This document shows positions 9,132 to 48,662 of a DNA stretch of 64,000 bases, piece by piece. Made by a program: the position numbers and the translations under genes. The stretch comes from Escherichia coli (GTDB lineage Bacteria > Pseudomonadota > Gammaproteobacteria > Enterobacterales > Enterobacteriaceae). A model generated the notes under the pieces. It was not told where the DNA came from and made no database searches. It saw only the letters and a list, made by a program, of their open reading frames with translations. The stretch lies in assembly GCF_030384885.1 (NCBI RefSeq), contig NZ_CP128613.1. The stretch is one strand, 5' to 3'. Position 1 is the first letter of the stretch. The number at the start of each line of letters is the position of its first letter.

Positions 9132-9307
9132 GTTTTGCATTTATCAGTCGTCTGAATTTTAACCCTCTGGCGACTTTACAGTACCTTACGCTATACTAGC
9201 CACTGAAAATGCCGGTTCACTTTCTTCGAATCGGCTTTCAATGTGTATTTCACACAAATTAATCAACTTCCCCTTCCGAGGATCTGGCCTGAAAGGTCGG
9301 ATAAGAT

Positions 9308-13777: not shown

Positions 13778-13966
13778 TTCTCCACCTCGTCTCTGTGAGC
13801 GGTGTTAACTTGTTGTTTTACTTATACCCTATCGTTAAAGAATGCGCCAACTGTGATAGTGTCATCATTTTCAAAGCGTTAAATTGTGGCATTCTTCACT
13901 GTTCTAAAAGTAAGAGGTTTATTCTCCCTTTTCTTTCGAATTCCCGATGATAAAAGGATGTCCCTG

Positions 13967-23080: not shown

Positions 23081-23202
23081 TCCGCTTCCCCACGTCTTCT
23101 TCGTGATGACTATCTTAACCCGATTTGTTAGAAGCTCCACTAAAATGGCTAAAAACTCGCAATTTCATCGGGTTATCAAATGCTCTGTGATCATTATCGC
23201 AT

Positions 23203-23224
23203 ATCAACCAACTAGATGGTTGAT
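23203..23224. promoter_or_regulatory. Candidate TetR operator (inverted repeat) in divergent promoter region
   Basis: atcaacca-actaga-tggttgat, 8-bp perfect arms, between the TetR gene and the SDR gene; inference. Confidence 0.35.
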
Positions 23225-23291
23225 CTTTCTTGCCACACATTGCAAGCTAATCGTCACTTAAGGAAATAATATTCAAAAAGAGGGTTATTGT

Positions 23292-24083: not shown

Positions 24084-24092
24084 GGCTGAATC

Positions 24093-24935: not shown

Positions 24936-24938
24936 GGA

Positions 24939-25721
24939 ATGATCATGAGTGACCAACCCGTTCTGTTCAGCAGAGCGGCGGCTTCCTGCCGCCTGACATT
25001 GAACCGTGAAGATAAATGTCATGCTATTAATGAAGAAATGATCGAATCTCTCGACCATTATTTAAATGAAATTGAAAACGACACCACATTACGATTAGTC
25101 GAATTAACGGCAACCGGCGATAAATTCTTTTGTGCAGGCGGCGATATTAAATCGTGGTCAGCCTATTCGCCATTAGATATGGGCAGAAAATGGATTAAAC
25201 GCGGCAATGACGTTTTTAATCGCCTGCGCAATTTACCTCAATTAACGGTTGCGAATCTCAACGGTCATACCATCGGCGGTGGTATTGAACTTGCCTTGTG
25301 CTGCGATATTCGTATTGCTCGCCCCGGCGCGAAATTCTCTAATCCGGAAGTAATGCTCGGCATGGTGCCTGGCTGGATGGGCATTGAACGCGTGCTTAAT
25401 CAGGTCGGTCCGGTGGTCGGTCGCCAGATGCTGATGCTGGGTAAACGCCTGACGGCGCAGGAAGCTCAGGCAGCGAATTTAATTGATGAAGTGGTAGAAA
25501 AAGAACAGGTGGAAAGCTGGATGGCGAATCAGTTAGCGCAGCTGGAAAAATGCGGTCCGGTGGCGCTCGCACATATCAAGCAACTGATTCTGGCTCTAGA
25601 AAATAAACATGCTGATTACCCGCACCAGTTACTGGCTGGATTAATGTCCGCCACTCAGGATTGCCAGCAGGCGACGCGCGCATTTGCCGAAAAAAGTAGC
25701 GTGAGCTTCCAAAATCAATAA
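24939..25721 (+). CDS. Enoyl-CoA hydratase/isomerase (crotonase family)
   Basis: Crotonase signatures FFCAGGDIKSW and GHTIGGGIELALCCDIRIA. Confidence 0.85.
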   Translation: MIMSDQPVLFSRAAASCRLTLNREDKCHAINEEMIESLDHYLNEIENDTTLRLVELTATGDKFFCAGGDIKSWSAYSPLDMGRKWIKRGNDVFNRLRNLPQLTVANLNGHTIGGGIELALCCDIRIARPGAKFSNPEVMLGMVPGWMGIERVLNQVGPVVGRQMLMLGKRLTAQEAQAANLIDEVVEKEQVESWMANQLAQLEKCGPVALAHIKQLILALENKHADYPHQLLAGLMSATQDCQQATRAFAEKSSVSFQNQ

Positions 25722-25730
25722 GGAAATTGT

Positions 25731-27272
25731 ATGCGTAAGATAACAACCGCCGAGACACTGGCGGCGCAAATTCAGGACGGTGCAACCATTGCCATTAGCG
25801 GTAATGGCGGCGGCATGGTGGAAGCGGACCATATTCTGGCTGCTATTGAAGCGCGTTTCCTGCAAACCGGACACCCGCGCGATCTGACATTAATCCACTC
25901 GCTGGGCATTGGCGATCGCGACTGCAAAGGCACTAACCGCTTCGCTCATGCAGATATGCTCAAACGCATCATTGCCGGACATTTTACCTGGTCGCCCAAG
26001 ATGCAGGATCTGGTGAAAAACAATGCTATTGAAGCCTACTGCTTCCCTGGTGGCGTAATTCAGGCACTGCTGCGGGAGATCGGTGCCGGACGTCCAGGGC
26101 TTTTTACCCACGTTGGACTGGGATCGTTTGTTGATCCGCGCAACGGCGGCGGTAAGTCGAACGCCAGCACCACTGAGGATCTGGTAGAACTGATTGAAAT
26201 CGACGGTGAAACCAAACTTCGTTATCGCCCTTTCAAAGTGGATTACGCGATTTTGCGTGGCACTTATGCCGATCCTCGAGGCAACGTCAGCCTTGAAGAA
26301 GAGGCGATTGATATGGATAGCTATTCCATGGCGCTGGCAGCACACAACAGCGGTGGCAAAGTGTTCGTACAGGTGCGCGATGTGCTGGAAGCTGGTGCCA
26401 TTGAACCACGCCGGGTCAAATTACCGGGCATTCTGGTTGATGGCATCGTTGAACACCGCGAACAACCGCAAACATATCTTGGCGGTTACGACCTGACCAT
26501 CAGCGGTCAGCACCGCCGTTTAAGTTCTAACGACGCTATTGAACTGGTTACTCATCCGGTGCGCCGCCTGATTGCCCGTCGGGCAGCACGCGAACTGGTG
26601 GCTGGCGCTTCAACCAACTTTGGCTTTGGCATTCCCGGCGGCATTCCTGGGGTTGCACTGCGCGAAGGCGTGCCTTATCAAAGTTTATGGCTGAGCGTCG
26701 AGCAAGGCGTGCATAACGGTATGATGCTGGATGATGCTCTGTTCGGCTGCGCCCGTAACGCCGATGCCATTATTCCATCACTCGATCAATTCGAATTCTA
26801 CAGTGGCGGAGGGATCGATATCACCTTCCTCGGCATGGGAGAGATGGATCAGCATGGTAACGTCAACGTCTCCCATCTCAATGGCAATCTCATTGGCCCC
26901 GGCGGATTTCTCGAAATTGCGCAAAACGCCCGTAAAGTGGTGTTCTGTGGCACGTTCGACGCCAAAGGTAGCAAGATTGATGTAACACCAGATGGCTTGC
27001 ATATCGCCCAGTCAGGTCAAATCCCTAAACTGGTTACCCAAGTGGAAAAAATCACTTTTAGCGCCGCCTACGCACAGCAAAGCGGTCAGGAAGTGTTGTA
27101 TATCACTGAACGTGCAGTATTCCAATTAACAGCAGAAGGCGTTGAATTAATTGAAATCGCACCAGGTGTGGAGATTGAGCGCGACATTCTGCCATATATG
27201 GCTTTCCGTCCAATTATCAATCAGCCACGCCTGATGGAAAGTAGCCTGTTTACGCCGATGGAGGATGCATGA
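25731..27272 (+). CDS. Family-I CoA-transferase (YdiF/acetate CoA-transferase-like, fused A/B subunits)
   Basis: 513-aa ORF; long stretches resemble E. coli YdiF as I recall it (…VGLGSFVDPRNGGGK…); 3' end overlaps the next gene (ATGA). Confidence 0.8.
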   Translation: MRKITTAETLAAQIQDGATIAISGNGGGMVEADHILAAIEARFLQTGHPRDLTLIHSLGIGDRDCKGTNRFAHADMLKRIIAGHFTWSPKMQDLVKNNAIEAYCFPGGVIQALLREIGAGRPGLFTHVGLGSFVDPRNGGGKSNASTTEDLVELIEIDGETKLRYRPFKVDYAILRGTYADPRGNVSLEEEAIDMDSYSMALAAHNSGGKVFVQVRDVLEAGAIEPRRVKLPGILVDGIVEHREQPQTYLGGYDLTISGQHRRLSSNDAIELVTHPVRRLIARRAARELVAGASTNFGFGIPGGIPGVALREGVPYQSLWLSVEQGVHNGMMLDDALFGCARNADAIIPSLDQFEFYSGGGIDITFLGMGEMDQHGNVNVSHLNGNLIGPGGFLEIAQNARKVVFCGTFDAKGSKIDVTPDGLHIAQSGQIPKLVTQVEKITFSAAYAQQSGQEVLYITERAVFQLTAEGVELIEIAPGVEIERDILPYMAFRPIINQPRLMESSLFTPMEDA

Positions 27273-29350
27273 GTCAGCTTGATGACACCCTCCTTGATGC
27301 GCTGACGCATGTCACTTTCCCGAAGGGTTTTGCACAGGCAGAACCCGCATGGGTTGTCACGGTAGACGGTGTTGATTACCCACTCTGGCAAACAGATGCC
27401 CTGGTAGTCGGCAGTGGTGCAGCCGGGCTGCGTGCAGCTGTGGAACTTAAACGCCGCCAGCAAAATGTGTTGATCGCCACTGCCGGGTTATATATGGGGA
27501 CGTCGGCATGTTCTGGTTCCGATAAACAGACACTGTTTACCGCCGCTACCGCGGGCAATGGCGACAACTTCACCAAACTGGCAGAGGCACTGGCGAGCGG
27601 TGGAGCGATGGATCACGACACCGCTTATGTCGAAGCGGTAGGTTCTCTGCACACTCTTGGCGGGTTGCAATATCTTGGTCTGGAATTACCGGAAGATCGC
27701 TATGGCGCGATTCTTCGTTATCAAACCGACCATGACGAAGCCGGGCGTGCAACCTCGTGTGGGCCGCGTACCTCAAGGTTAATGGTGAAAGTGCTGTTGG
27801 AAGAAGTGCAGCGCCTCGCCATTCCAGTGTTGACCAGTGCAACAGTGATTAAACTGCTGCATCAGCGTGACGAAAACGGCGAAGACTGCGTGGCGGGGGC
27901 AATCCTCGCGACCGGTCATCGCGCCCATAACCCATGGGGGCTGGCAATTGTGACTGCGCCCAATGTGGTGCTGGCAACAGGAGGGCCTGGCGAGCTTTAT
28001 CGAGACAGTGTGTACCCACATAAATGCTTCGGCTCGCTGGGGCTGGCGCTGGAAGAAGGTCTGACGCTAACCAATCTGACCGAAAGCCAGTTTGGTATTG
28101 GCACGCCACGCAACACCTTTCCGTGGAATTTGTCCGGCACCTATGTACAGGTGATCCCATATATCTATTCCGTAGATGCTGAGGGCAACGAGTATAACTT
28201 CCTCACGGATTACTATCGAACTACCCAGGAACTGGCTTCAAACATCTTCCGTAAAGGCTATCAGTGGCCGTTTCACGCCACACGAGTGATGGATTTTGGC
28301 TCCAGCTTGTTAGATATGGCAGTAGCGCAAGAGCAGCAATCAGGGCGTCAGGTATTTATGGATTTCAATCGCAATCCTGAACCTGTGCCGGGTGACATGC
28401 CGTTCTCATTAGATCGACTGGACGACGACGTTCGCGCGTATCTGGAAAATAACGACGCTCTGGCACCATCGCCCATCGAACGACTGCAACGAATGAATCC
28501 GCTGTCTATCTCGCTGTATAAGATGCACGGTTACGATCTCACCACGCAGCCATTGCAGTTTGCCATGAATAATCAGCATATGAATGGCGGCATTGAAGTG
28601 GATATCTGGGGGCAAACCTCCCTGCCCGGCTGTTTCGCCGTGGGGGAAGTTGCTGGCACACACGGCGTTACCCGACCTGGCGGTGCGGCGCTGAATGCCG
28701 GACAGGTATTTGCCGTGCGACTGGCACGTTTTATTGGTTGCACACAAAAGCGGTCCGTTGAGGATGATATCGCGCAGCTGGTAGCCTCACCTCTGCATAC
28801 AATCAGAGAAGTTATCGCTCAGGCACTGGCAAACGAGAACGGAATGACGCTGGCAACGGTGAAAGAAAAAATCCAGGCGCGAATGTCTGATTACGCGGGA
28901 TTTATTTGCCATGCTGATAAAGTTCGTCACGCCGCCCGTGACGCCATGCTGTTAAATGAATTTGCGCAGCAACATGGTCTAACTATCAACCACGCCGGTG
29001 AAATTGCCGAGCTATTTATGTGGCGGCATATGGCATTAACATCCGCTGCGGTGTTAAGCCAGCTATCACATTATATTGATGCTGGCGGTGGTAGTCGTGG
29101 AGCACGGATGATTATTGATCCACAAGGAGAATATCTTCCACAAACTCGTCGCGGCGCAATCGAAGATTGGCGTTTTCGCTCTGAACAAGCTGAAGATAAA
29201 AATCACAGACTAACTCTCTCCTTTTCACAAGGTTTATTTATTAATGAAATTAAGTTCTTGAGAAACTTACCGCATATTAAAGGTATTTACTTTGAGAAGA
29301 ATTGGCCTGATTTTCTTAACGGAACAATTTATCAGACACGGCATGAATAA
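27269..29350 (+). CDS. FAD-dependent oxidoreductase (fumarate reductase/succinate dehydrogenase/L-aspartate oxidase-like flavoprotein)
   Basis: Dinucleotide-binding motif VVGSGAAGLRAA, HMNGG and GEVAGTHGVTRPGGAALN motifs of the FAD_binding_2 family; 693 aa with an AT-rich C-terminal tail. Confidence 0.75.
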   Translation: MSQLDDTLLDALTHVTFPKGFAQAEPAWVVTVDGVDYPLWQTDALVVGSGAAGLRAAVELKRRQQNVLIATAGLYMGTSACSGSDKQTLFTAATAGNGDNFTKLAEALASGGAMDHDTAYVEAVGSLHTLGGLQYLGLELPEDRYGAILRYQTDHDEAGRATSCGPRTSRLMVKVLLEEVQRLAIPVLTSATVIKLLHQRDENGEDCVAGAILATGHRAHNPWGLAIVTAPNVVLATGGPGELYRDSVYPHKCFGSLGLALEEGLTLTNLTESQFGIGTPRNTFPWNLSGTYVQVIPYIYSVDAEGNEYNFLTDYYRTTQELASNIFRKGYQWPFHATRVMDFGSSLLDMAVAQEQQSGRQVFMDFNRNPEPVPGDMPFSLDRLDDDVRAYLENNDALAPSPIERLQRMNPLSISLYKMHGYDLTTQPLQFAMNNQHMNGGIEVDIWGQTSLPGCFAVGEVAGTHGVTRPGGAALNAGQVFAVRLARFIGCTQKRSVEDDIAQLVASPLHTIREVIAQALANENGMTLATVKEKIQARMSDYAGFICHADKVRHAARDAMLLNEFAQQHGLTINHAGEIAELFMWRHMALTSAAVLSQLSHYIDAGGGSRGARMIIDPQGEYLPQTRRGAIEDWRFRSEQAEDKNHRLTLSFSQGLFINEIKFLRNLPHIKGIYFEKNWPDFLNGTIYQTRHE

Positions 29351-29370
29351 TATTGCAAAGGTTAATCACT

Positions 29371-29847
29371 ATGCGAAATATAATCAGATCTATTAATTCA
29401 TTGCTTTCCACGTTGAACATTACCATTTTGGCAATTATTGTGATGTGCGTTACATGGCAAGTAGTAGCACGATTTATCTTTAAAAGCCCCAGCATTTTTA
29501 CAGATGAACTTAGTCGTTTACTATTTATTTGTCTTGGACTTTTTGGTGGTGCTTATACTGCCGGACAAAACCGACATCTGGCCATTGATCTTCTGCCAAT
29601 GATGCTAAAAGGAAAATCCCGACGTTATTTATTCTTATGTATTCAGGCCATTGTTATTCTTTTTGCCTCTATCATTATGGTTTATGGTGGCGGGTTATTA
29701 ACACTGGACACATTTGATTCAGGGCAAACTTCTCCGGCTTTAGGCTGGCAGATGGGATATATTTACATGAGCATTCCAATAAGTGGCATCCTTATTATTA
29801 TATACACCATAGATACAGTTTTAACCGAACTTAAACAACCACTCTAA
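29371..29847 (+). CDS. TRAP transporter small permease (DctQ-like)
   Basis: About 158 aa with 4 predicted TM helices; ATG at 29371 with upstream aaagg preferred over the TTG at 29353; directly upstream of DctM. Confidence 0.75.
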   Translation: MRNIIRSINSLLSTLNITILAIIVMCVTWQVVARFIFKSPSIFTDELSRLLFICLGLFGGAYTAGQNRHLAIDLLPMMLKGKSRRYLFLCIQAIVILFASIIMVYGGGLLTLDTFDSGQTSPALGWQMGYIYMSIPISGILIIIYTIDTVLTELKQPL

Positions 29848-29869
29848 AATAAGTAGGGATGGAGAAAAC

Positions 29870-31171
29870 ATGGATTACTGGTTACCGATCATTGTGTTAT
29901 TTGGTTCTTTCTTTTTTATGTTGGCATTAGGTGTTCCTATTGTCTATGCTATTGGTTTATCAACACTGGCATCAATTACTACACAACTCGATTTCAACTC
30001 AGCATTGAGTGTGGTTTCACAAAAGTTAGCCTCCGGGTTAGATAGTTTTACGTTGTTGGCAATCCCATTTTTTATCTTGTCTGGCAACATTATGAATCAT
30101 GGAGGAATAGCGCGACGATTAATCAACTTTGCCCGTATTCTCGGCGGTCGTCTGCCAGGCTCACTTGCTCACTGTAATATTCTTGCCAATATGCTGTTCG
30201 GGGCAATTTCTGGTTCAGCTGTTGCTTCGGCGGCTGCGATGGGCGGCGTCATGCATCCACAGCAGGTTAAAGAGGGTTACGACCCGGCATTCAGTACCGC
30301 TGTTAACGTTGCCTCTGCACCGACAGGTTTACTTATTCCACCCAGTAATACGTTAATTGTCTTTTCACTGGTCAGTGGTGGTACTTCTATTGCCGCACTG
30401 TTCCTGGCAGGATATGTCCCGGGAATTTTATTGGGCCTGGCGCTGATGACTGTGGCTGGTATTATCGCGGTACGCCGGGGTTATCCAAAACCAGAACGTC
30501 CGACTTTGCGCCAGGCTGGAGTGGCAATATGGATGGCGATCCCCAGTATTTTCCTGATTGTATTAATTATGGGTGGTGTACTAAGCGGTATTTTTACCCC
30601 GACAGAAGCATCTGCAATTGCGGTAATTTATACCCTTTTCCTTGCACTGGTTCTTTATCGTGAAATATCAGTTAAAGATTTACCTAAGATATTTCTGGAG
30701 TCCGTCATTACCACTGCAATTGTCTTGTTGTTAATTGGTTCTTCAATGGGAATGTCATGGGCAATGTCAAACGCTGACGTTCCCTTCCTGATTCTCGATT
30801 TGCTTAACACTATTTCTGATAATCCAATAATAATCCTGCTTATTATCAATATTATTCTGTTGATTATCGGCACATTTATGGATATGACACCGGCAGTACT
30901 GATTTTTACGCCGATATTTTTACCCGTTGTCACCGAACTGGGCATGGACCCGATTCACTTTGGTATTGTCATGGTACTGAACATGTGTATCGGTATTTGT
31001 ACTCCGCCTGTAGGCAGTGTGTTATTTGTCGGTTGTAGTGTATCTAAATTACCGATTAATAAAATTATCAAACCTATGCTGCCCTTCTATGCCGTGATGG
31101 TATTGGTGCTGGCTATGGTGACCTATATTCCGCAAATCAGTATGGCATTGCCAAGAGCACTGGGCTACTGA
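29870..31171 (+). CDS. TRAP transporter large permease (DctM-like)
   Basis: 433-aa polytopic membrane protein; size and hydrophobicity pattern typical of DctM. Confidence 0.85.
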   Translation: MDYWLPIIVLFGSFFFMLALGVPIVYAIGLSTLASITTQLDFNSALSVVSQKLASGLDSFTLLAIPFFILSGNIMNHGGIARRLINFARILGGRLPGSLAHCNILANMLFGAISGSAVASAAAMGGVMHPQQVKEGYDPAFSTAVNVASAPTGLLIPPSNTLIVFSLVSGGTSIAALFLAGYVPGILLGLALMTVAGIIAVRRGYPKPERPTLRQAGVAIWMAIPSIFLIVLIMGGVLSGIFTPTEASAIAVIYTLFLALVLYREISVKDLPKIFLESVITTAIVLLLIGSSMGMSWAMSNADVPFLILDLLNTISDNPIIILLIINIILLIIGTFMDMTPAVLIFTPIFLPVVTELGMDPIHFGIVMVLNMCIGICTPPVGSVLFVGCSVSKLPINKIIKPMLPFYAVMVLVLAMVTYIPQISMALPRALGY

Positions 31172-31223
31172 TGCGCATTCACTGGCGGCTCCTGCCGCCA
31201 TATTTATTAGAAAAGGAACATCT

Positions 31224-32195
31224 ATGAAAATAAAAGTATCCGCTGGCATTATCGGTGCTGTTCTTATGTTATCTGCAGGCCAGTCCTGGGCAGTAACATT
31301 AAAACTTAGCCATAATCAGGATAAATCTCATCCTGTTCATAAAGCGATGGAGTTCTTTGCGAAAAAGAGCAAAGAGTACTCTAACGGTGATATTACTATT
31401 CGTATTTATCCAAATGGAACATTGGGTACTCAACGAGAAACAATGGAGCTGATTCGTTCTGGTGCTATTCCGCTGGTAAAAACCAATGCGGCGGAGATGG
31501 AAGCCTTCGAGAGTTCGTATAAAATATTTAGCCTGCCTTATTTGTTCCGCGATCGTGATCATTATTATCAGGTCATGCAAGGCGATATCGGAAGGAAAAT
31601 CCTCGACTCAACGAAAAACAAAGGTTATTTCGGTCTGACTTTCTATGATGGAGGCGCCCGCAGCTTCTACGGCAATAAACCGGTGCTGAAACCAGACGAT
31701 CTCAAAGGAATGAAAGTTCGTGTCCAGCCAAGCCCAGGGGCAGTTGAGATGATCAAAGTCATGGGAGGTAACCCAACACCGCTGGATTATGGAGAGTTGT
31801 ACACAGCATTGCAGCAAGGTGTGGTTGATATGGCGGAAAACAGTGTGATGGCGCTGACCACCATGCGCCACGGTGAAGTAGCAAAATCCTTCAGCCTTGA
31901 CGAACACACTATGGTTCCTGATGTGGTTCTAATGAGCAATGCTTCGTTTGATAAGCTTAGCCCGGAAAATCAGGCAGCTATATTAAAAGCAGCTAAAGAA
32001 TCAATGAGCTACATGAAAGACTTGTGGAGCGAGGAAGAGAAAAAAGAATTCGCTAAACTGGATCAAATGGGCGTGAAAGTCTACAAGGTTGATAAAGCAC
32101 CGTTTATCGAGAAAGTGCAGCCGATGTACGCAGCCTTTGCTAAGGAAAACCCTGCTCTCGCCCCAATGCTAACTGATATTCAGGCGACTAAGTAA
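31224..32195 (+). CDS. TRAP transporter substrate-binding protein (DctP-like), periplasmic
   Basis: 323 aa, signal peptide MKIKVSAGIIGAVLMLSAGQSWA; DctP-size soluble protein adjacent to DctQM. Confidence 0.8.
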   Translation: MKIKVSAGIIGAVLMLSAGQSWAVTLKLSHNQDKSHPVHKAMEFFAKKSKEYSNGDITIRIYPNGTLGTQRETMELIRSGAIPLVKTNAAEMEAFESSYKIFSLPYLFRDRDHYYQVMQGDIGRKILDSTKNKGYFGLTFYDGGARSFYGNKPVLKPDDLKGMKVRVQPSPGAVEMIKVMGGNPTPLDYGELYTALQQGVVDMAENSVMALTTMRHGEVAKSFSLDEHTMVPDVVLMSNASFDKLSPENQAAILKAAKESMSYMKDLWSEEEKKEFAKLDQMGVKVYKVDKAPFIEKVQPMYAAFAKENPALAPMLTDIQATK

Positions 32196-33350: not shown

Positions 33351-33764
<414 letters not shown>

Positions 33765-34073
33765 TTATTCAGCCTCCTGTCTGGGTCAGCCGAATCCCGG
33801 GGAGGCAAGGAACGTGTTAAAGGTCGGCTGAAAAATGACGCGTTATAGTACTGACATACCCCGCTAAACTCAAGGCCAGCCGACAAATAAATCTCATCTT
33901 TCACCAAATCGTACTAACACGCTGATTTGAAGTTCATCACACTTCATCATGGTGTTTTTTTGAACAACTGCATCAGAAATGGTCACCATCCACTTCTTTA
34001 TCATTGATTAAAATTAAATCAGAAGATCACCACAAGAGGAGAGCACACAAAGTCAGCCGTCGAGGAGGTATCT

Positions 34074-34349
34074 ATGTTCAGCCGTGTTTTAGCCCTTCTG
34101 GCTGTGCTTTTGCTAAGTGCAAATACATGGGCAGCCATTGAAATTAATAACCACCAGGCCAGAAATATGGACGATGTGCAAAGCTTAGGCGTGATTTATA
34201 TCAATCATAATTTCGCCACTGAAAGTGAAGCACGTCAGGCATTAAATGAAGAGACAGATGCGCAGGGCGCAACGTACTACCATGTGATTCTGATGCGGGA
34301 ACCGGGGAGTAACGGCAATATGCACGCCAGCGCGGATATTTATCGCTAG
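34074..34349 (+). CDS. yjfY: DUF1471 (YhcN/BhsA family) periplasmic protein YjfY
   Basis: 91 aa, signal peptide, C-terminal ...ADIYR motif shared with bsmA and yjfN. Confidence 0.88.
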   Translation: MFSRVLALLAVLLLSANTWAAIEINNHQARNMDDVQSLGVIYINHNFATESEARQALNEETDAQGATYYHVILMREPGSNGNMHASADIYR

Positions 34350-34477: not shown

Positions 34478-35164
34478 TTACTTCTGCCCGTAATAGGCGT
34501 TGGGACCGTGCTTACGCATGAAGTGTTTATTCATGAGATAGCTGTCGATGTGATTCAGTTGCGGGTTAATGCCGCGGGCAATCCACGCCATTTTCGCCAC
34601 TTCTTCCATCACCACCGCGTTATGCACCGCATCGTGAGCATCTTTCCCCCAGGCGAATGGCCCGTGCTGATACACCACAATTCCCGGCGTATGCAGCGGC
34701 TCGGCGTCACCCAGCGTTTCGATAATCACTTTGCCAGTGTTTAGCTCGTATTCCCCCTGCACTTCTTCTTCGCTTAACCCGCGCGTACACGGGATATCGC
34801 CAAAGAAGTAGTCAGCGTGCGTGGTGCCTAATGCCGGGATCGCCAGCCCCGCCTGCGCCCATGCGGTGGCATGCGTGGAATGGGTATGGACAATGCCGCC
34901 AAGCGACGGATAACGACGGTAGAGTTCAAGATGCGTCGCAGTGTCGGAAGACGGACGATACTCCCCTTCCACCACCTTGCCACTCATATCAACCACCACC
35001 ATATCGTTCGCTTTCATGCTTTCGTAGGCAATGCCGCTGGGCTTGATCACCACCAGCCCGCGTTCGCGGTCAATGGCGCTGACGTTACCCCAGGTAAAGG
35101 TCACCAGCCCGTAGCGCGGCAGATCCATATTGGCTTCAAATACCTGCTGTTTTAGCTTTTGCAT
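34478..35164 (-). CDS. ulaF: L-ribulose-5-phosphate 4-epimerase UlaF
   Basis: 228-aa class II aldolase/epimerase fold; last gene of ulaABCDEF. Confidence 0.95.
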
Positions 35165-36018
35165 TATGCCGCCTCCACCATGCCGGCTTTAGCCATGCGC
35201 GCTTTCACCCAATCACGCGCTTTCGCCACTTCTGCCGCCGGGTCTTCCGCCGTTTCGCTCCACATCTCAATCAGGTACGGCCCGCAATAACCACTCTGTT
35301 TGAGCGTTTCGAAGCAACGTTCGAAATCCACTACACCTTCGCCAAACGGCACGTTTTTGAAGACGCCTGGTTTAGTGTCTTTCACATGCACCGCAACGAT
35401 GTGCCCGATTCCGGCCTGCAACTCCATCTGCACGTCGTTGTCCCACGCCGACAAGTTGCCGATATCCGGGTAGAGCTGGAACCACGGGTTGTTAAGATAG
35501 TGCGCGTAACCCAGCGCCTTGCTGATGGAGTTCATCAACGGGTAATCCATGATCTCCATTGCCAGCGTCACCTGCGCGCGGCTCGCCATCTCAACGCTCT
35601 CTTTCAGGCCGTCACGGAAACGACGACGCGTTTCGTTATTGGCTTCCTGATAGTAAACGTCGTAGCCCGCCAGTTGGATCACGCGAATACCGACATCCTG
35701 GGCGAACTGGATAGCTTTGCGCATAATCTCCAGCCCCTGCGCCCGCACTGCGTCATCTTCGCTGCCCAGCGGGAAACGGCGATGAGCAGAAAGGCACATG
35801 GACGGCACGCGCACGCCGGTTTCAACAATCGCGTTCACCAGCGCCAGACGCTGCTCGCGGCTCCAGTCAAGGCGCGAGAGGCGATCGTCCGTTTCATCTA
35901 CCGACATCTCGACAAAATCGAAGCCTAACGTTTTTGCCAGTTGCAGCCGTTCCAGCCAGCACTCCCCGGTGGGGAGCGCTTTTTCGTAGATGCCAAGCGG
36001 GATTTGTTTGGACAACAT
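35164..36018 (-). CDS. ulaE: L-ribulose-5-phosphate 3-epimerase UlaE
   Basis: 284-aa TIM-barrel; synteny in ula operon. Confidence 0.95.
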
Positions 36019-36027
36019 ATCCGCTCC

Positions 36028-36678
36028 TTAGCCCCACAGCTCGGCGATGGAACGTTTGAACTGACGCGCGGCTTCAACCGGAGAAGCGGCATCACGGATA
36101 CTACGCCCCGCGATAAACACATGAATCGGAATGCCTTTGAACAGCGGCAGGTCTTCCAGCGCCAGGCCACCGGTGACGGTGACTTTGAAGCCCATATCGG
36201 AAAGACGTTTGATCGCGGTGATATCCGCTTCGCCCCACGCCACGCCTGCGGCCTGCGCGTCACGGCTGCGGTGATAAACCACCTGCTGGATACCTGCGTC
36301 GCGCCACTGCTGCGCCTGTTCCCAGGTCCAGTAACCGGTCAGTTCGATCTGCACGTCGCCATTAAACTCTTTTGCCACGTCCAGCGCGCCTTTGGCGGTG
36401 TTGATATCTGCACAACAAATCACGGTCACCCAGTCAGCGTTGGCTTCAAAGCACATACGAGAAAGGATTTTGCCCGCATCGGCGATTTTGGCGTCTGCCA
36501 GCACGATTTTGTGCGGATAAAGCGCTTTCAGATCGCGAACCGCACGCACACCTTCGCCCACGCACAGAATGGTGCCCACTTCGATAATGTCGACTTCTTC
36601 GGCAATCAGGCGAGTAGTTTCGTAGGCGCTAGCCATAGTCTGGTTGTCCAGCGCGACTTGCAACATCGGTAATGACAT
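36028..36678 (-). CDS. ulaD: 3-keto-L-gulonate-6-phosphate decarboxylase UlaD
   Basis: Start set at [11 protein letters not shown] (216 aa); the ORF-track 267-aa version over-extends into ulaC. Confidence 0.95.
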
Positions 36679-36691
36679 TTTCAATTCCTTC

Positions 36692-37156
36692 TTAAGCAGC
36701 CGCGTTGGTGCGGTCAATGAGATCCAGGACTTCCTGCTCAGTACGGCAGGCGCGTAAACGGTCGAAATTCTCTTCATCTTCAAACAGGTTGACGATCTGC
36801 ATGATGCCCACTTCCTGATGCGTGTTGGCATCGACCGCCGCCATCGTGATGAGGATATCCACCGGGTCGTTATCTTCGTGGTTGAACTCCAGCGGCTTTT
36901 TCAGCGTCACCAGTGCAAAACCGGTTTTCTTAACGCCCTCTTCCGGGCGACCATGCGGCATTGCCAGGCCCGGTGCGAGCACAAAGTACGGGCCGTGTTG
37001 TTCAACCGCATCCAGAATCGCCTGGTAGTAACGCGGCTCTACCACATCTGCCGCCACCAGCAGGTCAACGCCGATTTTCACTGCGTCCTGCCATGTCTCA
37101 ACTTCAGCCTGCAGACGGATAGATTTATTCTCCGCCAGCGAATCACGTAATTTCAT
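36692..37156 (-). CDS. ulaC: Ascorbate-specific PTS EIIA component UlaC
   Basis: 154-aa ORF; synteny. Confidence 0.95.
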
Positions 37157-37165
37157 AGCGCGCCC

Positions 37166-37471
37166 TTACTTCACGTCCTGCGGGAAATGTTCTTTGATCA
37201 CTTCCAGCAGTTTCGGGCCAAAATCGGCAGGAGAGAGCATGTTGCGCACGCCAACCACGTATTTATTGCCGGTCACGGTTATTTCGCCCGCGATGTGCGT
37301 AGAAGCGATGATGATATCCGCGCCGCTCAACTCGCTTTTGTATTCACCAACCGCGCAGCTGTTTACCGTGTGGTCGATGTTCGACTGGGTTAAAAACTGG
37401 TCCACTTTCATTTTCATGATCATGGAACTGCCTTGTCCGTTACCACACACAGCCAGAATACGTACGGTCAT
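37166..37471 (-). CDS. ulaB: Ascorbate-specific PTS EIIB component UlaB
   Basis: Start set at [16 protein letters not shown] (101 aa), with the Cys phosphorylation site. Confidence 0.95.
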
Positions 37472-37486
37472 AATCAAAACTCCTTA

Positions 37487-39238
<1,752 letters not shown>

Positions 39239-40303
39239 ATGAGTAAAGTGAAAAGTATCACCCGTGAATCCTGGATCCTGAGCACTTTCCCGGAGTGGGG
39301 TAGCTGGTTGAATGAAGAAATTGAACAAGAACAGGTAGCTCCTGGCACATTCGCGATGTGGTGGCTAGGCTGCACCGGGATCTGGCTGAAATCTGAAGGA
39401 GGCACCAACGTTTGCGTCGATTTCTGGTGTGGTACTGGCAAACAAAGTCACGGTAACCCACTAATGAAACAGGGTCACCAGATGCAGCGCATGGCTGGCG
39501 TGAAAAAACTGCAACCGAACCTGCGTACCACCCCATTTGTTCTTGATCCGTTTGCGATTCGCCAGATCGACGCGGTACTGGCAACTCACGATCACAACGA
39601 TCATATCGACGTCAACGTCGCTGCTGCCGTGATGCAGAACTGCGCTGATGACGTGCCATTTATCGGGCCGAAAACCTGCGTGGATTTGTGGATTGGCTGG
39701 GGTGTGCCGAAAGAACGTTGCATCGTGGTCAAACCGGGCGATGTCGTTAAAGTGAAAGACATTGAAATTCATGCCCTTGACGCGTTTGACCGTACTGCAC
39801 TGATCACTTTGCCTGCCGATCAAAAAGCGGCTGGCGTACTGCCAGACGGCATGGACGATCGCGCGGTAAACTACCTGTTCAAAACGCCGGGCGGTACCCT
39901 GTATCACAGTGGCGATTCCCACTACTCTAACTACTATGCGAAGCACGGTAACGAGCATCAGATCGACGTGGCATTAGGTTCATACGGTGAAAACCCACGT
40001 GGTATCACCGACAAAATGACCAGTGCTGATATCCTGCGTATGGCAGAAGCGCTGAATACAAAAGTGGTTATCCCGTTCCACCACGACATCTGGTCAAACT
40101 TCCAGGCCGATCCGCAAGAGATCCGCGTACTGTGGGAGATGAAAAAAGATCGCCTGAAGTATGGCTTCAAGCCGTTTATCTGGCAGGTCGGTGGCAAATT
40201 TACCTGGCCGCTGGATAAAGACAATTTCGAGTACCACTATCCACGTGGTTTTGACGATTGCTTCACCATTGAACCGGATCTGCCGTTCAAGTCGTTCCTG
40301 TAA
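39239..40303 (+). CDS. ulaG: L-ascorbate-6-phosphate lactonase UlaG (metallo-beta-lactamase fold)
   Basis: 354 aa from [12 protein letters not shown]; HDHNDH metal-binding motif. Confidence 0.95.
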
Positions 40304-40410
40304 TCTGTCGTTTATACCGGATGGCGTGGAGAAGTTCGCGCTATCCGGCGTAGTATTTCCTGGCTATTTCAAATATCATCTAAAAAAATCAAATTTTATC
40401 GGAATAGCTC

Positions 40411-41166
40411 ATGACTGAAGCACAAAGACATCAAATTCTCCTGGAAATGCTCGCACAATTGGGCTTTGTGACCGTTGAGAAAGTCGTTGAGCGTCTGGGA
40501 ATTTCGCCTGCTACCGCTCGACGCGATATCAATAAACTTGACGAAAGCGGCAAACTGAAAAAAGTGCGCAATGGCGCAGAAGCCATTACCCAGCAGCGCC
40601 CACGCTGGACGCCGATGAATCTGCATCAGGCGCAGAACCATGATGAAAAAGTACGTATCGCTAAAGCAGCCTCGCAGCTGGTTAATCCGGGCGAAAGCGT
40701 CGTCATCAACTGCGGTTCCACCGCGTTTCTGCTTGGGCGGGAAATGTGTGGCAAGCCAGTGCAAATCATTACTAATTATCTACCGCTGGCGAATTACCTG
40801 ATCGATCAGGAGCATGACAGCGTGATTATCATGGGCGGCCAATACAACAAAAGCCAGTCCATCACCTTAAGTCCACAGGGCAGCGAAAACAGTCTCTATG
40901 CCGGGCACTGGATGTTTACCAGCGGCAAAGGACTGACCGCAGAAGGGTTGTATAAAACCGATATGCTGACGGCAATGGCAGAGCAGAAGATGTTGAGCGT
41001 GGTAGGGAAACTGGTGGTACTGGTTGATAGCAGTAAGATCGGCGAACGTGCGGGGATGCTCTTTAGTCGTGCAGATCAAATCGATATGCTGATCACCGGC
41101 AAAAATGCTAACCCGGAAATCCTGCAACAACTGGAAGCGCAAGGGGTCAGCATTCTGCGTGTTTAA
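40411..41166 (+). CDS. ulaR: DeoR-family repressor of the ula regulon UlaR
   Basis: 251-aa ORF with N-terminal HTH and C-terminal DeoR sugar-phosphate-binding domain. Confidence 0.95.
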
Positions 41167-41912
41167 AGATGCTGCTGGAAAAATGTCACGGCAGCATCTA
41201 ATGCCTCAGGCGTAATGCGGTGACGCACGCCTGGCTGCCATGAACAGGTTAGCAGTTTATCCCGTCCCGTCTCGATTAAGGCCTGCTGCAAACGTAGTGA
41301 TTCGTCGGCAGGCACGACGTCATCGTCAAGGCCATGCCACAGCAGTAGAGGTCTGTCACCAAGTTGTTCCAGATGGTTTGTCGCTTCCCACTCTGCCAGC
41401 GGCGCGACAATGTTATTGAATTCATTCTGCTGTGCTGCCGTTTCAGGTATCAGCGGTGGAAACAGTGAACGGGCGAGCGATGTAAAATAGCCCGATCCCA
41501 TCATGCTGGCGGTACATTTCACCGTGGGGTGGCGAGCGGTAATTCCCAGTGCCGTCATCGCGCCCATCGACGCGCCACCGACTGCCAGACGGTCAGCAAG
41601 CAGCCAGTTTTCTTCGGCTATTGCCGCACGTAAGGTAGTGAATTCCTGCATACTTTGTAGCAAAATTTGCCAAAATTGATATAACCGCCGCGCTGCGTCG
41701 CCCCTAAAACGGCTACCGTGATCGGGCGCATCCGGCATGATCACCCGCAAACCAGCCTGCGCCAGCGCAACGGCAAAATAGCTATACACCAGACTGGACG
41801 AAGTAAAGCCGTGATAAAAAATCACGCACGGTAACGGGGTATCTTTTTGCCCGACAGGATAAGCATGAAGAACGGGAATATCTGCCAGCACGCGCGAGTC
41901 TATTTCAATCAT
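41163..41912 (-). CDS. yjfP: Esterase YjfP (alpha/beta hydrolase)
   Basis: 249-aa ORF with nucleophile elbow GASMG. Confidence 0.92.
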
Positions 41913-42093
41913 CTGTCTCTCCTTTTTGTCTGGTATGACATGAAGAAATCCTTAGCACAAGTTTCTGCTGGCGGTATTAGTTCATAATGTTGAGATGTGG
42001 GTTACGCTTTCGTCACGTTTTCATTCGAAAATCGCGTACCAGGTAACAATTCGGGAACATTCCCCCAAAGTTAAATTAATAAGGCACTACACT

Positions 42094-42423
42094 ATGGTTA
42101 GCAGGAAACGTAATAGCGTTATTTACCGGTTTGCCAGTTTATTATTGGTGTTGATGTTAAGTGCCTGTAGCGCACTGCAAGGTACGCCACAGCCAGCACC
42201 GCCAGTAACGGACCATCCGCAAGAGATTCGCCGCGACCAGACGCAAGGGTTACAGCGAATAGGTAGCGTAAGCACGATGGTTCGGGGTTCTCCGGATGAC
42301 GCATTAGCAGAAATCAGAGCGAAAGCTGTCGCTGCAAAAGCTGATTATTACGTTGTCGTCATGGTGGACGAAACCATCGTGACAGGACAGTGGTATTCAC
42401 AAGCTATTTTATACCGTAAATAA
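42094..42423 (+). CDS. bsmA: Biofilm/stress lipoprotein BsmA (YjfO)
   Basis: Start set at MVSRKRNSVIYRF (109 aa); lipobox LSAC; C-terminal AILYRK motif. Confidence 0.88.
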   Translation: MVSRKRNSVIYRFASLLLVLMLSACSALQGTPQPAPPVTDHPQEIRRDQTQGLQRIGSVSTMVRGSPDDALAEIRAKAVAAKADYYVVVMVDETIVTGQWYSQAILYRK

Positions 42424-42571
42424 ATCAGACAACTTATACAGCCAGCTTTACATTGCTTTGCGTCCCTATGCGTTTACCTGTGCACAATAAATTACCAGCT
42501 GGAAGCTCGGGCGTTTATTACCGCGATGGAATGCCCTGCAACATGTGGGGAAACGAAAAATGGAGCTGATG

Positions 42572-42847
42572 ATGAAACAATTACTTGCCTCACCCTCACT
42601 GCAATTAGTGACTTATCCTGCGAGCACCACGGCACAGTCTGCAGAATTCGCCAGTGCTGACTGCGTGACGGGCCTGAATGAAATAGGTCAGATCTCGGTT
42701 AGCAATATTTCAGGGGATCCGCAGGACGTGGAACGTATCGTGGCGTTAAAGGCCGATGAACAAGGTGCGTCATGGTACCGCATTATTACCATGTATGAAG
42801 ACCAGCAGCCTGATAACTGGCGTGTACAGGCGATACTGTATGCGTGA
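42572..42847 (+). CDS. yjfN: DUF1471 periplasmic protein YjfN
   Basis: Start set at MKQLLASPSLQL (91 aa); C-terminal ...AILYA motif. Confidence 0.85.
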   Translation: MKQLLASPSLQLVTYPASTTAQSAEFASADCVTGLNEIGQISVSNISGDPQDVERIVALKADEQGASWYRIITMYEDQQPDNWRVQAILYA

Positions 42848-42849
42848 GT

Positions 42850-42905
42850 GTCATCCGCAGCAAATGAACAATGCCGGATGCGACACCTGTGCCTTATCCG
42901 GCCAA
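42850..42905. repeat. REP-like palindromic unit
   Basis: atgccggatgcgacacctgtgccttatccggcc after yjfN. Confidence 0.6.
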
Positions 42906-42996
42906 CAGTTCCTGAAATTTCATTGTGTTAGTTGATAACACGTAATGCTGCTGTTGCCATTATAAGACGCGCTAGCATCACATCTGGCTGACTCGT

Positions 42997-44622
42997 TTAT
43001 AAACATACTCCCCCCGTCGCCCGCAGCAATAAATCATTCTGGATCTGCTCTGACAACCGCACGCCGCCGCGCGTATCAAACATCATCTGACACCACGCCT
43101 GCGCCATTGGCGGAGAGGCATATTTCAACATTTGCGCGCCGCAACCCAGCAGGAATAGCTGACGAGTAATCTCTCGCCCCATTTCTTCAGCTGGCTTACG
43201 CAGTTGCTGCTGCAAACGACGAACCGCGCGATCAAAATAGCGATCCTGCCCTTTCACTTCCATAAACGCTTCCGACAGTAAGTCGTATACACCCGCCTGC
43301 TTATTAAGAACGCGCAATACATCCAGGCACATAATATTGCCAGAACCTTCCCAGATGCTGTTCACCGGCATTTCCCTGTAAAGCCGCGGCAGCTCGCTCT
43401 CCTCGCAATAACCAATACCGCCCAGCACCTCCATCGCTTCGGCCACAAACGGCATACCACGTTTGCAGATAACCAATTTCGCCGCAGGCGTAAATAAACG
43501 CGCCCACAGGGCTTCTTTGGCATCGGCACGCCGGTCCCACGCTCGCGCAAGACGAAACAGCAACGCCGTTTGACCTTCAAGCTGAAGTGCCATGCGACTT
43601 AAGACATGACGCATAAGGGGTTGTTGGATCAATGGATTACCAAAAACATGGCGTTGATGGGCATGATAAATCGCCAGCGAAAATGCACGGCGCATCATGG
43701 CATGGCTACCCAGGGCGCAATCAAAACGCGTCATCCCACCCATTTTCAGGATCAGACGAACTCCTTCCCCTTCCTGCCCCAACAACCAGCCAATGGCATC
43801 CTGAAACTCCACTTCGCCGCTGGCGTTAGAGCGATTACCCAGCTTATCTTTCAGCCGCTCGAGGCGAATCGCGTTGCGTTGCCCGTCAGGCAAAAAGCGC
43901 GGCACAAAAAAGCAGGACAAACCGCCAGTGGTCTGCGCCAGTACCAGATGCGCATCGCTTTGTGGCACCGAGAAAAACCATTTATGCCCCACCAGCCGAT
44001 AAGAGCCATCGTCCAGACGCTCTGCGCGGGTAGTGTTGCTCATCACATCGGAACCGCCCTGCTTTTCCGTCATGCCCATGCCAATCAACAAACCGCGTTT
44101 TTGCCCACCTGGCAATAAGTGGGAATCGTAGCGATCGCTCAACAGCGGCGTGGTCCAGTCCTGAAACGGCGCGGGTAACATCTGTAACAGCAATGGCGTG
44201 GCGGCAAAGGTCATGGTTATCGGACATAACGACCCTGCCTCAACCTGTGCGTGCAACATAAAACGCGCCGCTCGCGCCACAAATGCGCCGGAGCGAGCGT
44301 CTTCTTCCCAGGCCAGATTGTGTACCCGATTGGTACATAACGCCTGCATCAGCAGGTGCCAGGCGGGGTGAAAACGCACATCGTCCAGACGGCGTCCTTG
44401 CGCATCGTAGCGCAATAATTCGGGCGGATTCACATTCGCCAGTCGCCCCAGTTCAAGGGATTCAGCCGTTCCTAACTGCTGACCAATACTGGCGAGAAAA
44501 TCGCTATCCCAGCCAGCACCTTCACGCGTTACCGCTTCGCAGAGCGCGCCATCAGACAGGTATAAGTTGCTGTTATTTAATGGTATAGGTTGATTAAAAA
44601 CGGTGTGAGTTTGCCAGTGCAC
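42997..44622 (-). CDS. aidB: Acyl-CoA dehydrogenase-family protein AidB
   Basis: 541 aa if started at the GTG corresponding to the K-12 MVHWQTH start; an in-frame ATG/TTG lies 5-6 codons upstream (44637/44640). Confidence 0.92.
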   Translation of the reverse strand: MHWQTHTVFNQPIPLNNSNLYLSDGALCEAVTREGAGWDSDFLASIGQQLGTAESLELGRLANVNPPELLRYDAQGRRLDDVRFHPAWHLLMQALCTNRVHNLAWEEDARSGAFVARAARFMLHAQVEAGSLCPITMTFAATPLLLQMLPAPFQDWTTPLLSDRYDSHLLPGGQKRGLLIGMGMTEKQGGSDVMSNTTRAERLDDGSYRLVGHKWFFSVPQSDAHLVLAQTTGGLSCFFVPRFLPDGQRNAIRLERLKDKLGNRSNASGEVEFQDAIGWLLGQEGEGVRLILKMGGMTRFDCALGSHAMMRRAFSLAIYHAHQRHVFGNPLIQQPLMRHVLSRMALQLEGQTALLFRLARAWDRRADAKEALWARLFTPAAKLVICKRGMPFVAEAMEVLGGIGYCEESELPRLYREMPVNSIWEGSGNIMCLDVLRVLNKQAGVYDLLSEAFMEVKGQDRYFDRAVRRLQQQLRKPAEEMGREITRQLFLLGCGAQMLKYASPPMAQAWCQMMFDTRGGVRLSEQIQNDLLLRATGGVCL

Positions 44623-46935: not shown

Positions 46936-47595
46936 TTAACCAATAATATGAAGTGATGTCAGTGGGATATCAACACCCAGTGCGCGCGAAAATAACCACT
47001 CCGGCTCGCCGAGATCGTTAAAAGATTCCTCACCATTTAACAGCAAATATTCACAGGTATCTTCGGTCACCTGCCGTTCATAGCCCATGGTAAAATTATG
47101 CACTTCCCATTTGGCGTGGTTTTGATTTTCAACTTTTTCCAGCATATAGACGGGTTCGATATTTCCCGGTTCTTCACTGTTAAAAAATCGCTGCCAGCGT
47201 TTTTCCTGCCAGTTTAATGTCATTGCCCCCATCGCTTTGGCGTTGATCGCTTCGCGCCAGTGGCTCTCTTTGCTGATACCGTAGCTCTCTTCATAGACAA
47301 AGAGCTTTATATCATCAATGTCATCAATATCTTCGCCGCCGGTGGTATTGATTTGCAGAAATTCATCGCCCGAAGTGTAGTAGCGGAAAATCTGACTACC
47401 GCCGCCCAGATCGATGTGGCTGACAGCGGCTACCGTAAATTCTTCACCCGGCAGCGCAATCAGCAATTCATCTTCCAGCAAACGAAACGCTAACGTGTCG
47501 AGCGTAAAGCCGCTATTGAGATGAAGTCCCAGTGGGCCACGTGCGATTGCAGGTTTATCATCCTTACCAAACAGACGCTTGAAAAAACTTGTCAT
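46936..47595 (-). CDS. yjfK: DUF2491 protein YjfK
   Basis: 219-aa ORF; its ATG overlaps the stop of the upstream RCK-domain ORF (ATGA). Confidence 0.88.
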   Translation of the reverse strand: MTSFFKRLFGKDDKPAIARGPLGLHLNSGFTLDTLAFRLLEDELLIALPGEEFTVAAVSHIDLGGGSQIFRYYTSGDEFLQINTTGGEDIDDIDDIKLFVYEESYGISKESHWREAINAKAMGAMTLNWQEKRWQRFFNSEEPGNIEPVYMLEKVENQNHAKWEVHNFTMGYERQVTEDTCEYLLLNGEESFNDLGEPEWLFSRALGVDIPLTSLHIIG

Positions 47596-48347
47596 ATGCT
47601 TCCCTCAATGTCCTGCCATGCCACTTCTTCAGCCAAAATACGGTTATTGCCAATAAGATGCAGCCACATACCGCCTTTAACTTCCGTTGCAATGACTGGA
47701 TTCAGTTCCATTCCCCTACCATTTTTACAACTGCTTATTCCCAGGACGGTGGCATCATGATGAAGTTTCATATAATGCATCAATGCGCCATAACGCATTG
47801 AGGTAACCCGTTCAGGAATCGGTAAAACAAACCCCGTATCCCCCAGCATTGGATTCATAATCGATGCCACTGATTGAGATGAACCGGGATCTTGTATTGA
47901 ACGGGAAAGTTGTTCTGCTGAAATATTTCGCACTATTTCAATACGTTGACAATGAACCTCTAATAAACGAGCGTAGCGTTCATCTTCCAGATAAGCGACG
48001 ATATGGCATCTTTCAGGAATAAAATCCGCCAGGGATAGTGCGGTCGTGAACGTCTGCTCATCTGTTTGCGAAAAGATGATGACACTTTGGCAATTTGCCA
48101 GTCCCATGCGGGTATGTTCATGCGGATCATTAAAATTACTAATACGAATGAAATCGACCCAATTATTTCCAGGCATCGGATGTTGAATATCATCCCGCTC
48201 ACACAAAAGTACCCGGCCAAATGCTCTTCGGGAATCAAACAACAATAATGAAATCATCTTTTCAGTCTGATGCCCGCGCCATCCAATGACCAGCATATGG
48301 TTGCGCAAATTGCTGTAGTCGCCCATTCCCGTCATTCCTTTCGCCAA
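47592..48347 (-). CDS. RCK/TrkA-like cytoplasmic domain protein (C-terminal half of a Kch/MthK-like K+ channel)
   Basis: Rossmann-like start …HMLVIGWRGHQTEKMISLL… and later segments resemble TrkA-N/TrkA-C by eye; ORF track starts at TTG 48347, but in-frame ATGs at 48335 and 48326 follow an AAAGGA Shine-Dalgarno-like sequence; same frame as the pore ORF. Confidence 0.6.
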   Translation of the reverse strand: MAKGMTGMGDYSNLRNHMLVIGWRGHQTEKMISLLLFDSRRAFGRVLLCERDDIQHPMPGNNWVDFIRISNFNDPHEHTRMGLANCQSVIIFSQTDEQTFTTALSLADFIPERCHIVAYLEDERYARLLEVHCQRIEIVRNISAEQLSRSIQDPGSSQSVASIMNPMLGDTGFVLPIPERVTSMRYGALMHYMKLHHDATVLGISSCKNGRGMELNPVIATEVKGGMWLHLIGNNRILAEEVAWQDIEGSI

Positions 48348-48353
48348 TATGTC

Positions 48354-48662
48354 TTACACTAATGCAATGACTTTTCCCATTAAAGCGCCAAATAAACCAA
48401 CACTCACAGGAATCTGCCAGAGCGCTGTGAACAGACGTCCCCCCACCGTTTGGGGTGTGATATCACCAAACCCCAGCGTTGATCCCACAACCGAGCAGTA
48501 ATAAATAAAATTACTAAGTTGTCCTACCAACGCCTCTTCATGCAACGCAGTTAACACCAGATAACAAAACAGATACTGTCCTGTAAATAATCCAGTCAAT
48601 GCCGGCCAGGTAAGCCTGGAAAGGTGACGTCGGCAGGTTTTAATGATCCATGAGAAGAACAT
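48354..48662 (-). CDS. Two-TM potassium-channel pore domain protein (selectivity filter TLGFGD)
   Basis: 102 aa: hydrophobic M1, pore helix + GSTLGFGDITP (T-x-G-[YF]-G-D K+ filter), hydrophobic M2; ATG overlaps yjfJ stop (TAATG); ends at a TAA in frame with the RCK ORF. Confidence 0.65.
   Translation of the reverse strand: MFFSWIIKTCRRHLSRLTWPALTGLFTGQYLFCYLVLTALHEEALVGQLSNFIYYCSVVGSTLGFGDITPQTVGGRLFTALWQIPVSVGLFGALMGKVIALV

Follow-up and report, generated by a model that had tools for sequence, protein, structure and literature searches.

The DUF1471 proteins of enteric bacteria, which have been linked to stress and biofilm formation, comprise about twelve paralogous subfamilies, ten of which occur in Escherichia coli, and the adjacent position of yjfN and yjfO (bsmA) has been considered consistent with expansion of the family by gene duplication (Eletsky et al. 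2014, PMC4092069). The YjfY subfamily has been listed as uncharacterised (PMC4092069). YjfN has been described as a 'suicide activator' of DegP, which is activated by the hydrophobic C-terminal residue, and DegP stimulation together with self-degradation is reported for the K-12 protein (Kim et al. 2018 via PMC12096828, bioRxiv 10.1101/2024.12.25.630354). Furthermore, yjfN has been assigned to the CpxR iModulon (PMC7657598) and recovered as a multicopy suppressor of a PPIase-deficient strain (PMC7461557). Equally, a similarity between the DUF1471 fold and the fold of RcsF has already been remarked upon (PMC4092069, PMC12096828). [quoted passage not shown]

The window considered here, that is the whole 64 kb stretch of E. 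coli DNA that was analysed, contains exactly three DUF1471 open reading frames according to a profile scan in six frames, namely bsmA, yjfN and yjfY (Table 1). Very probably, the three are ancient paralogues within the Enterobacterales-restricted DUF1471 family that reside in one conserved interval, originated by local duplication and subsequently diverged in targeting and C-terminus. An earlier note, made from the letters of the window, had delineated the same three genes, and its positions, gene names and quoted peptide strings agree exactly with the open reading frames and RefSeq; the strings are the ends of BsmA (...ADYYVVVMVDETIVTGQWYSQAILYRK), YjfN (...ASWYRIITMYEDQQPDNWRVQAILYA) and YjfY (...ATYYHVILMREPGSNGNMHASADIYR).

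Table 1. Positions of the annotated genes, the spacer and the RNA features in the window
Feature	Position	Strand	Description
bsmA (yjfO)	42094-42423	+	RefSeq 'biofilm peroxide resistance protein BsmA'; 109 aa
yjfN	42572-42847	+	RefSeq 'DUF1471 family protease activator YjfN'; 91 aa
yjfY	34074-34349	+	RefSeq 'DUF1471 family protein YjfY'; 91 aa; divergent from rpsF
bsmA-yjfN intergenic spacer	42424-42571	+	148 bp
yjfP esterase gene	41163-41912	-	conserved member of rpsF-aidB interval
ula regulon	34478-41166	ulaFEDCBA -, ulaG +, ulaR +	RefSeq annotation; variable cassette
RpsF leader	33744-33828	-	Rfam 110.1 bits; upstream of rpsF, rpsF-yjfY divergent region
naRNA4	4-80	-	Rfam 63.6 bits, above gathering score
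STnc450 sRNA	9189-9246	+	Rfam 77.2 bits, above gathering score
ES239 sRNA	13844-13966	-	Rfam 149 bits, above gathering score; between cysQ and cpdB

The annotation was taken from the RefSeq record of NZ_CP027579.1 (E. coli 2013C-4282), to which positions 41900-43000 of the window are 100% identical. This segment is matched in 5424 of 5426 complete E. coli genomes, with an identity of at least 99% in just 11 and of 95-99% in 5409 of the 5424. Compared with K-12, where bsmA, yjfN and yjfY occur in identical order under identical names, the bsmA-yjfN spacer is identical in 141 of 148 bases. The small number of closely matching genomes together with the seven deviating spacer bases indicates that the strain harbours a relatively uncommon allele of the region. 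The proteins differ from their K-12 counterparts by R75K in BsmA and by T19A in the signal peptide of YjfN, and YjfY is 100% identical.

Relatedness of the three proteins

That bsmA, yjfN and yjfY encode paralogues of the DUF1471 (YhcN/BhsA) family, as had been proposed from the letters, is borne out by Pfam, NCBIfam and the annotation of RefSeq and K-12. The full 55-position profile PF07338 (YdgH/BhsA/McbA-like, previously DUF1471) matches BsmA with 56.9 bits (E = 2.1e-15), YjfN with 63.1 bits (E = 2.5e-17) and YjfY with 71.6 bits (E = 5.3e-20), the Pfam gathering score being 27 bits. The NCBIfam equivalog for BsmA (NF011433, cut-off 100 bits) recognizes BsmA with 152.7 bits and, as paralogues should, YjfN (51.9) and YjfY (31.9) stay under the cut-off. 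Equally, an alignment of the three proteins (A1) matches the DUF1471 structures 2jna, 2m2j, 2ma8, 4evu, 2noc and 2ma4 of the PDB by sequence. Family members assigned to PF07338 at E <= 0.001 amount to 487 representatives (50% identity) among 1.84 billion proteins, and restriction of the family to the Enterobacterales is reflected in the BsmA loci, as all 80 inspected (the best 80 of 159) belong to Enterobacteriaceae by title or synteny.

Identities across the three pairs amount to just 22-30%. Composition-corrected BLASTP aligns BsmA with YjfN at 29% identity (E = 1e-8) and with YjfY at 22% identity (E = 1e-3), and returns no alignment between YjfN and YjfY, a pair whose relation is seen instead by Smith-Waterman shuffles and profile comparison. 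Both the low identities and the missing YjfN-YjfY alignment could be read as signs of three unrelated small proteins with a coincidental or convergent C-terminal motif. Such unrelatedness deserves practically no credence, however, because the Pfam gathering score is exceeded by 30-45 bits in all three cases, the Smith-Waterman scores of the mature proteins have z-values of 11.5 (BsmA-YjfN), 6.4 (BsmA-YjfY) and 9.1 (YjfN-YjfY), the comparison of subfamily profiles results in E-values of 5e-12 to 5e-19 and the model of BsmA displays the solved DUF1471 fold, which in combination exclude coincidence. The pairwise alignment that had been suggested as a check is equally clear, with none of 2000 shuffled sequences reaching the observed score in any of the three pairs. 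The AlphaFold model of BsmA (pLDDT 89.2), with the elements E54-64, H67-80, E85-93 and E99-108, corresponds to the mixed alpha+beta fold of the solved domains of SrfN, YahO and YdgH (domains I and III); a Foldseek search of the PDB places 2m2j, 4evu and 2ma8 at the top (target-normalised TM 0.67-0.79, rmsd 2.0-2.2), with the best superpositions on 2m2j and 4evu (TM 0.79).

The shared C-terminal motif had been taken to indicate local paralogy around the ula locus. The motif, consisting of an aromatic pair, a beta-hairpin and A-x-[IL]-Y-[KR], is indeed common to the three proteins, but as proof of a local origin it does not hold. When domains were compared with those of seven other K-12 family genes (rclB, yahO, ybiJ, mcbA, bhsA, ydgH and yhcN), A-x-[IL]-Y-[KR] was found to be nearly invariant throughout the family, and the aromatic pair with a longer hairpin is common to BsmA, YjfN, YjfY and all three domains of YdgH, the gene of which is located far off on the K-12 chromosome. 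As the motif is family-wide and equally present in the distant YdgH, it demonstrates membership and not local duplication; support for a local origin comes from gene position.

A side aspect concerns the beta-hairpin loop itself (positions 42373-42390 in bsmA, 42800-42817 in yjfN and 34305-34322 in yjfY), which in alignment A2 is about three residues longer in BsmA, YjfN, YjfY and the three YdgH domains, and shorter in BhsA, McbA, YbiJ, YahO, YhcN and RclB. Judged from the aligned residues, the length of the hairpin may represent an indel that splits the family in two.

The rpsF-aidB interval and the origin of the cluster

Synteny was surveyed with one genome per species in the best 80 of 159 confirmed BsmA relatives and, in addition, in three more distant contigs (the distant assemblies include GCA_900460525.1 and GCA_015476605.1; the 1.7 kb contig of a further BsmA-like protein, P0077, is too short to show neighbours). 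In 79 of the 80 Enterobacteriaceae species loci (best 80 of 159), a yjfN-like gene comes after bsmA in the same orientation and is intact in 78; the exceptions are a locus with a yjfN-like gene of altered C-terminus (L039) and one Erwinia-titled MAG without yjfN. The commonest gene order among the 80 loci, with arrowheads for orientation, is rpsF< yjfY> ulaFEDCBA< ulaG> ulaR> yjfP< bsmA> yjfN> aidB<.

In the window, bsmA and yjfN are equally adjacent on the same strand, and their similar length might suggest a tandem duplication that occurred recently and specifically in Escherichia. Against such a recent event stand the mere 29% identity of the two proteins, the presence of the tandem from Escherichia to Klebsiella, Kluyvera, Buttiauxella and Kosakonia and its occurrence on a distant contig (L011) with the order yjfP< bsmA-like> yjfN-like>, where the YjfN-like protein is 45% identical. 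The synteny survey refutes a duplication confined to Escherichia, the probability of which is vanishingly small, and shows that bsmA and yjfN stood in tandem before the Enterobacteriaceae radiated.

A local origin of bsmA and yjfN is well supported by their adjacency, by the synteny in 79 of 80 loci, by YjfN being the best in-genome match of BsmA (BLASTP 33.5 bits; 87-88 for subfamily profiles in hhalign) and by the sister position of the two clades in a neighbour-joining tree of 113 family domains. The DUF1471 phylogeny, which had been recommended as a further check, thus unites BsmA and YjfN, but does so with just 37% bootstrap in a tree based on about 63 alignable columns, in which the BsmA clade itself reaches 82%, and it leaves YjfY unplaced, as no grouping with any partner exceeds 13%. 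YjfN, in turn, is closer to YhcN than to BsmA (42 versus 33.5 bits in BLASTP; 102 versus 87 in hhalign). Considering the 37% bootstrap, the proximity of YjfN to YhcN and the unplaced YjfY, position is stronger evidence for local paralogy than the sequence phylogeny.

The designation of yjfY as a third copy nearby, around the ula locus, is confirmed by the conserved interval. Within the rpsF-aidB interval yjfY always adjoins rpsF, and the ula regulon that separates it from bsmA in E. coli is a variable component, present in 46 and absent from 16 of the 62 sampled loci that reach rpsF. In 14 ula-less species, which comprise Kluyvera, Raoultella, Buttiauxella and some Enterobacter and Citrobacter, the arrangement yjfY> yjfP< bsmA> yjfN> is contained in 2.0-3.3 kb, with yjfY about 1 kb from bsmA and yjfP as the sole gene between. 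Loci with and without ula are both found within Citrobacter (including C. amalonaticus strains), Enterobacter and Buttiauxella.

Support for a local origin of yjfY is, though, positional and not phylogenetic, YjfY standing in sequence no nearer to BsmA and YjfN than to YhcN or domain I of YdgH. The gene might have come to lie close to bsmA otherwise than by local duplication, either by chance or because a gene from a different lineage (YhcN- or YdgH-like, for instance) landed independently next to rpsF. In favour of such a separate origin, the best in-genome BLASTP matches of YjfY are YhcN (39 bits) and domain I of YdgH (35 bits), followed by BsmA (24 bits) and no match to YjfN, its tree position has the low bootstrap values mentioned, and bsmA occurs without yjfY on a distant contig where the bsmA-like gene stands alone (L013) and in Siccibacter and Intestinirhabdus. 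On the other hand, if ten genes were placed at random in a 4.64 Mb genome, three of them would come to lie within 8.8 kb with p ~0.0013 only, the two genes are in close vicinity not only in the 14 ula-less species but also in the distant L008 (rpsF< yjfY-like> yjfP< bsmA-like> aidB<), YjfN ties with YhcN as the best match of YjfY in profile comparison (57.5 versus 57.4) and the hairpin longer by three residues is common to YjfY, BsmA and YjfN. With this evidence on both sides, an independent arrival of yjfY is considered unlikely, and a shared local origin of all three genes is preferred.

The rpsF-aidB interval has long been occupied by one to three DUF1471 genes, of which a bsmA-like one is always present, also in the more distant relatives. 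We infer that one ancestral gene would have given rise to all three by duplication on the spot, with targeting and C-terminus diverging thereafter.

One sampled locus (L050, CACSKA010000007.1) derives from an assembly titled 'Chryseobacterium sp. 18061' and displays a typical Enterobacteriaceae rpsF-yjfY-ula-yjfP-bsmA-yjfN-aidB arrangement. BsmA of this locus has the same identity, 63%, as BsmA of 'Citrobacter sp. 18056' (L051), apparently from the same project, and mislabelling or contamination of the assembly is probable.

A scan for promoters and terminators in 41850-43050 identified neither a sigma-70 consensus promoter in this region nor an intrinsic terminator in the bsmA-yjfN spacer. 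Only two terminator-like matches occur in 41850-43050, one within bsmA in the wrong orientation and the other at a REP-like palindrome after yjfN, and the fold of the spacer RNA (z = -0.33) argues for no structured element. The palindrome, GCCGGATGCGACACCTGTGCCTTATCCGGCC at 42873-42903, which we take to be a REP element, is situated between the convergent yjfN and aidB and accounts for the terminator-like match on the minus strand. Rfam reports nothing in or near bsmA, yjfN and yjfY except the RpsF leader.

Elsewhere in the window, a ~9.7 kb accessory cluster is situated between ytfB and rplI (22433-32195), where K-12 has just yjfZ and the ytfA pseudogene. Its products include a TetR/AcrR regulator, a 3-ketoacyl-ACP reductase, a sugar-phosphate isomerase, an enoyl-CoA hydratase, a CoA transferase, an FAD-dependent oxidoreductase and a three-component TRAP transporter. 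Furthermore, a gene for a 'potassium channel family protein' (47592-48662, minus strand) has its place between yjfK and yjfJ, a gap that in K-12 is empty and 50 bp long.

Targeting and C-termini

The three proteins, described as secreted, are predicted from sequence to be exported, with a lipobox in BsmA, a canonical signal peptide in YjfY and, in YjfN, a weak h-region combined with a conserved AQS/AEF cleavage site. BsmA is composed of a signal peptide, the lipobox L-S-A-C25 with Ser at position +2, a Pro-rich linker (TPQPAPPVTDHPQE) and the DUF1471 domain from about residue 53 to 108. By a strict pattern the lipobox is present in 77 of 82 BsmA orthologues, 75 of these 77 having S or T at +2, and its residues L, A and C are invariant even in distant orthologues (alignment A3). 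By the Lol sorting rule, BsmA with Ser at this position is predicted to be sorted to the outer membrane as a lipoprotein. The lipobox and the Pro-rich tether would have been acquired by BsmA, which is reported to affect biofilm and peroxide stress. YjfY possesses a canonical Sec signal peptide (...LLLSANTWA/AIE) and is, from its primary structure, predicted to be a soluble periplasmic member of the family.

YjfN, a predicted periplasmic DUF1471 protein ending in ...AILYA, stands out by its C-terminus. The last two residues are YA in 70 and YV in 8 of 80 orthologues (together 78), whereas the basic family terminus is kept in a distant homologue, in BsmA (...YRK) and in YjfY (...IYR). The hydrophobic C-terminal residue required for engagement of DegP (PMC12096828) is present as Ala in YjfN of the window, and the conserved A/V end fits the published role of this residue. 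In the proposed course of events, YjfN would have remained soluble and exchanged its terminal Lys/Arg for Ala/Val; by the published account, the tail engages DegP and activates proteolysis, with YjfN being consumed. As BsmA and YjfY keep the basic terminus, they probably do not share the DegP-tail mechanism.

The signal peptide of Escherichia YjfN (42572-42640, residues 1-23; MKQLLASPSLQLVTYPASTTAQS) is unusual in having a weak h-region with Pro, Gln and Tyr. The best Kyte-Doolittle mean over 10 residues is 1.45 for E. coli YjfN, about 2.0 for the Citrobacter/Salmonella version (MKQSLALSSLLLSAGLVSTTAQS) and 1.0-1.6 in Klebsiella/Raoultella. A wrongly assigned start codon or a decayed gene was considered as cause and rejected, because a GGAG Shine-Dalgarno sequence lies 6 nt upstream of the ATG at 42572 (the adjoining ATG at 42569 is ACG in K-12), the cleavage region AQS/AEFASADC including the single Cys is conserved almost everywhere among YjfN orthologues and the h-regions of Klebsiella and Raoultella are equally weak, which speaks for a normal trait of this subfamily.

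Comparison with related systems

RcsF, an outer-membrane stress-sensor lipoprotein, combines a lipobox, a Pro-rich linker and a small alpha+beta domain, features which are found also in BsmA. The model of BsmA matches RcsF structures 2l8y and 2y1b with a Foldseek probability of 1.00 and TM values of 0.53-0.66. The NCBIfam profile of RcsF, on the other hand, reveals no significant sequence homology, covering lipobox and linker of BsmA with E = 0.079 and 13.1 bits against a cut-off of 140. Equally, the lipidated Cys25 is the only cysteine of mature BsmA, while RcsF depends on disulfide bonds (PMC4092069). Lacking disulfide cysteines and a significant sequence match, BsmA is not a member of the RcsF family. 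To our knowledge, no link of BsmA to Rcs signalling has been described. A far-reaching and rather improbable idea would be that BsmA nevertheless acts in an RcsF-like manner, the DUF1471 domain on its conserved TPxPxPP tether contacting or threading outer membrane proteins, and that yjfY-bsmA-yjfN constitutes a diversified envelope-surveillance module. If this were true, a lipid-anchored, a DegP-activating and a free periplasmic member of one module would have developed from a single ancestor.

Among the DegP activators and adaptors that act by a C-terminal tail, such as YjfN and, as an adaptor, CpxP, YjfN of the window can be placed by its retained C-terminal Ala. Local arrangements of DUF1471 genes are known from other sites as well. 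ybiJ and mcbA, 4 kb apart in K-12, likewise bear the signature of local duplication and, with ~53-70 bits, are much closer to each other in sequence than bsmA and yjfN (33.5 bits), and Salmonella yhcN is located beside a ycfR-like gene. YdgH unites three DUF1471 copies fused in one polypeptide, unlike the separate bsmA, yjfN and yjfY.

Two modest additions to this knowledge can be made. One is the location of yjfY in the same ancestral interval as bsmA-yjfN, its separation in E. coli being due only to the variable ula regulon; the other is the hydrophobic C-terminus of YjfN as a conserved, subfamily-specific departure from the basic family terminus. Both could aid the study of the specialisation of DUF1471 paralogues and are otherwise of little import. 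With respect to the described DUF1471 family (PMC4092069), all three proteins of the window are members, each consisting of one alpha+beta domain of ~60 aa that is preceded by a predicted export signal. There is no difference in kind, and what is added to the earlier description is the synteny across 80 species and the place of yjfY in an ancestral interval that has been split by ula.
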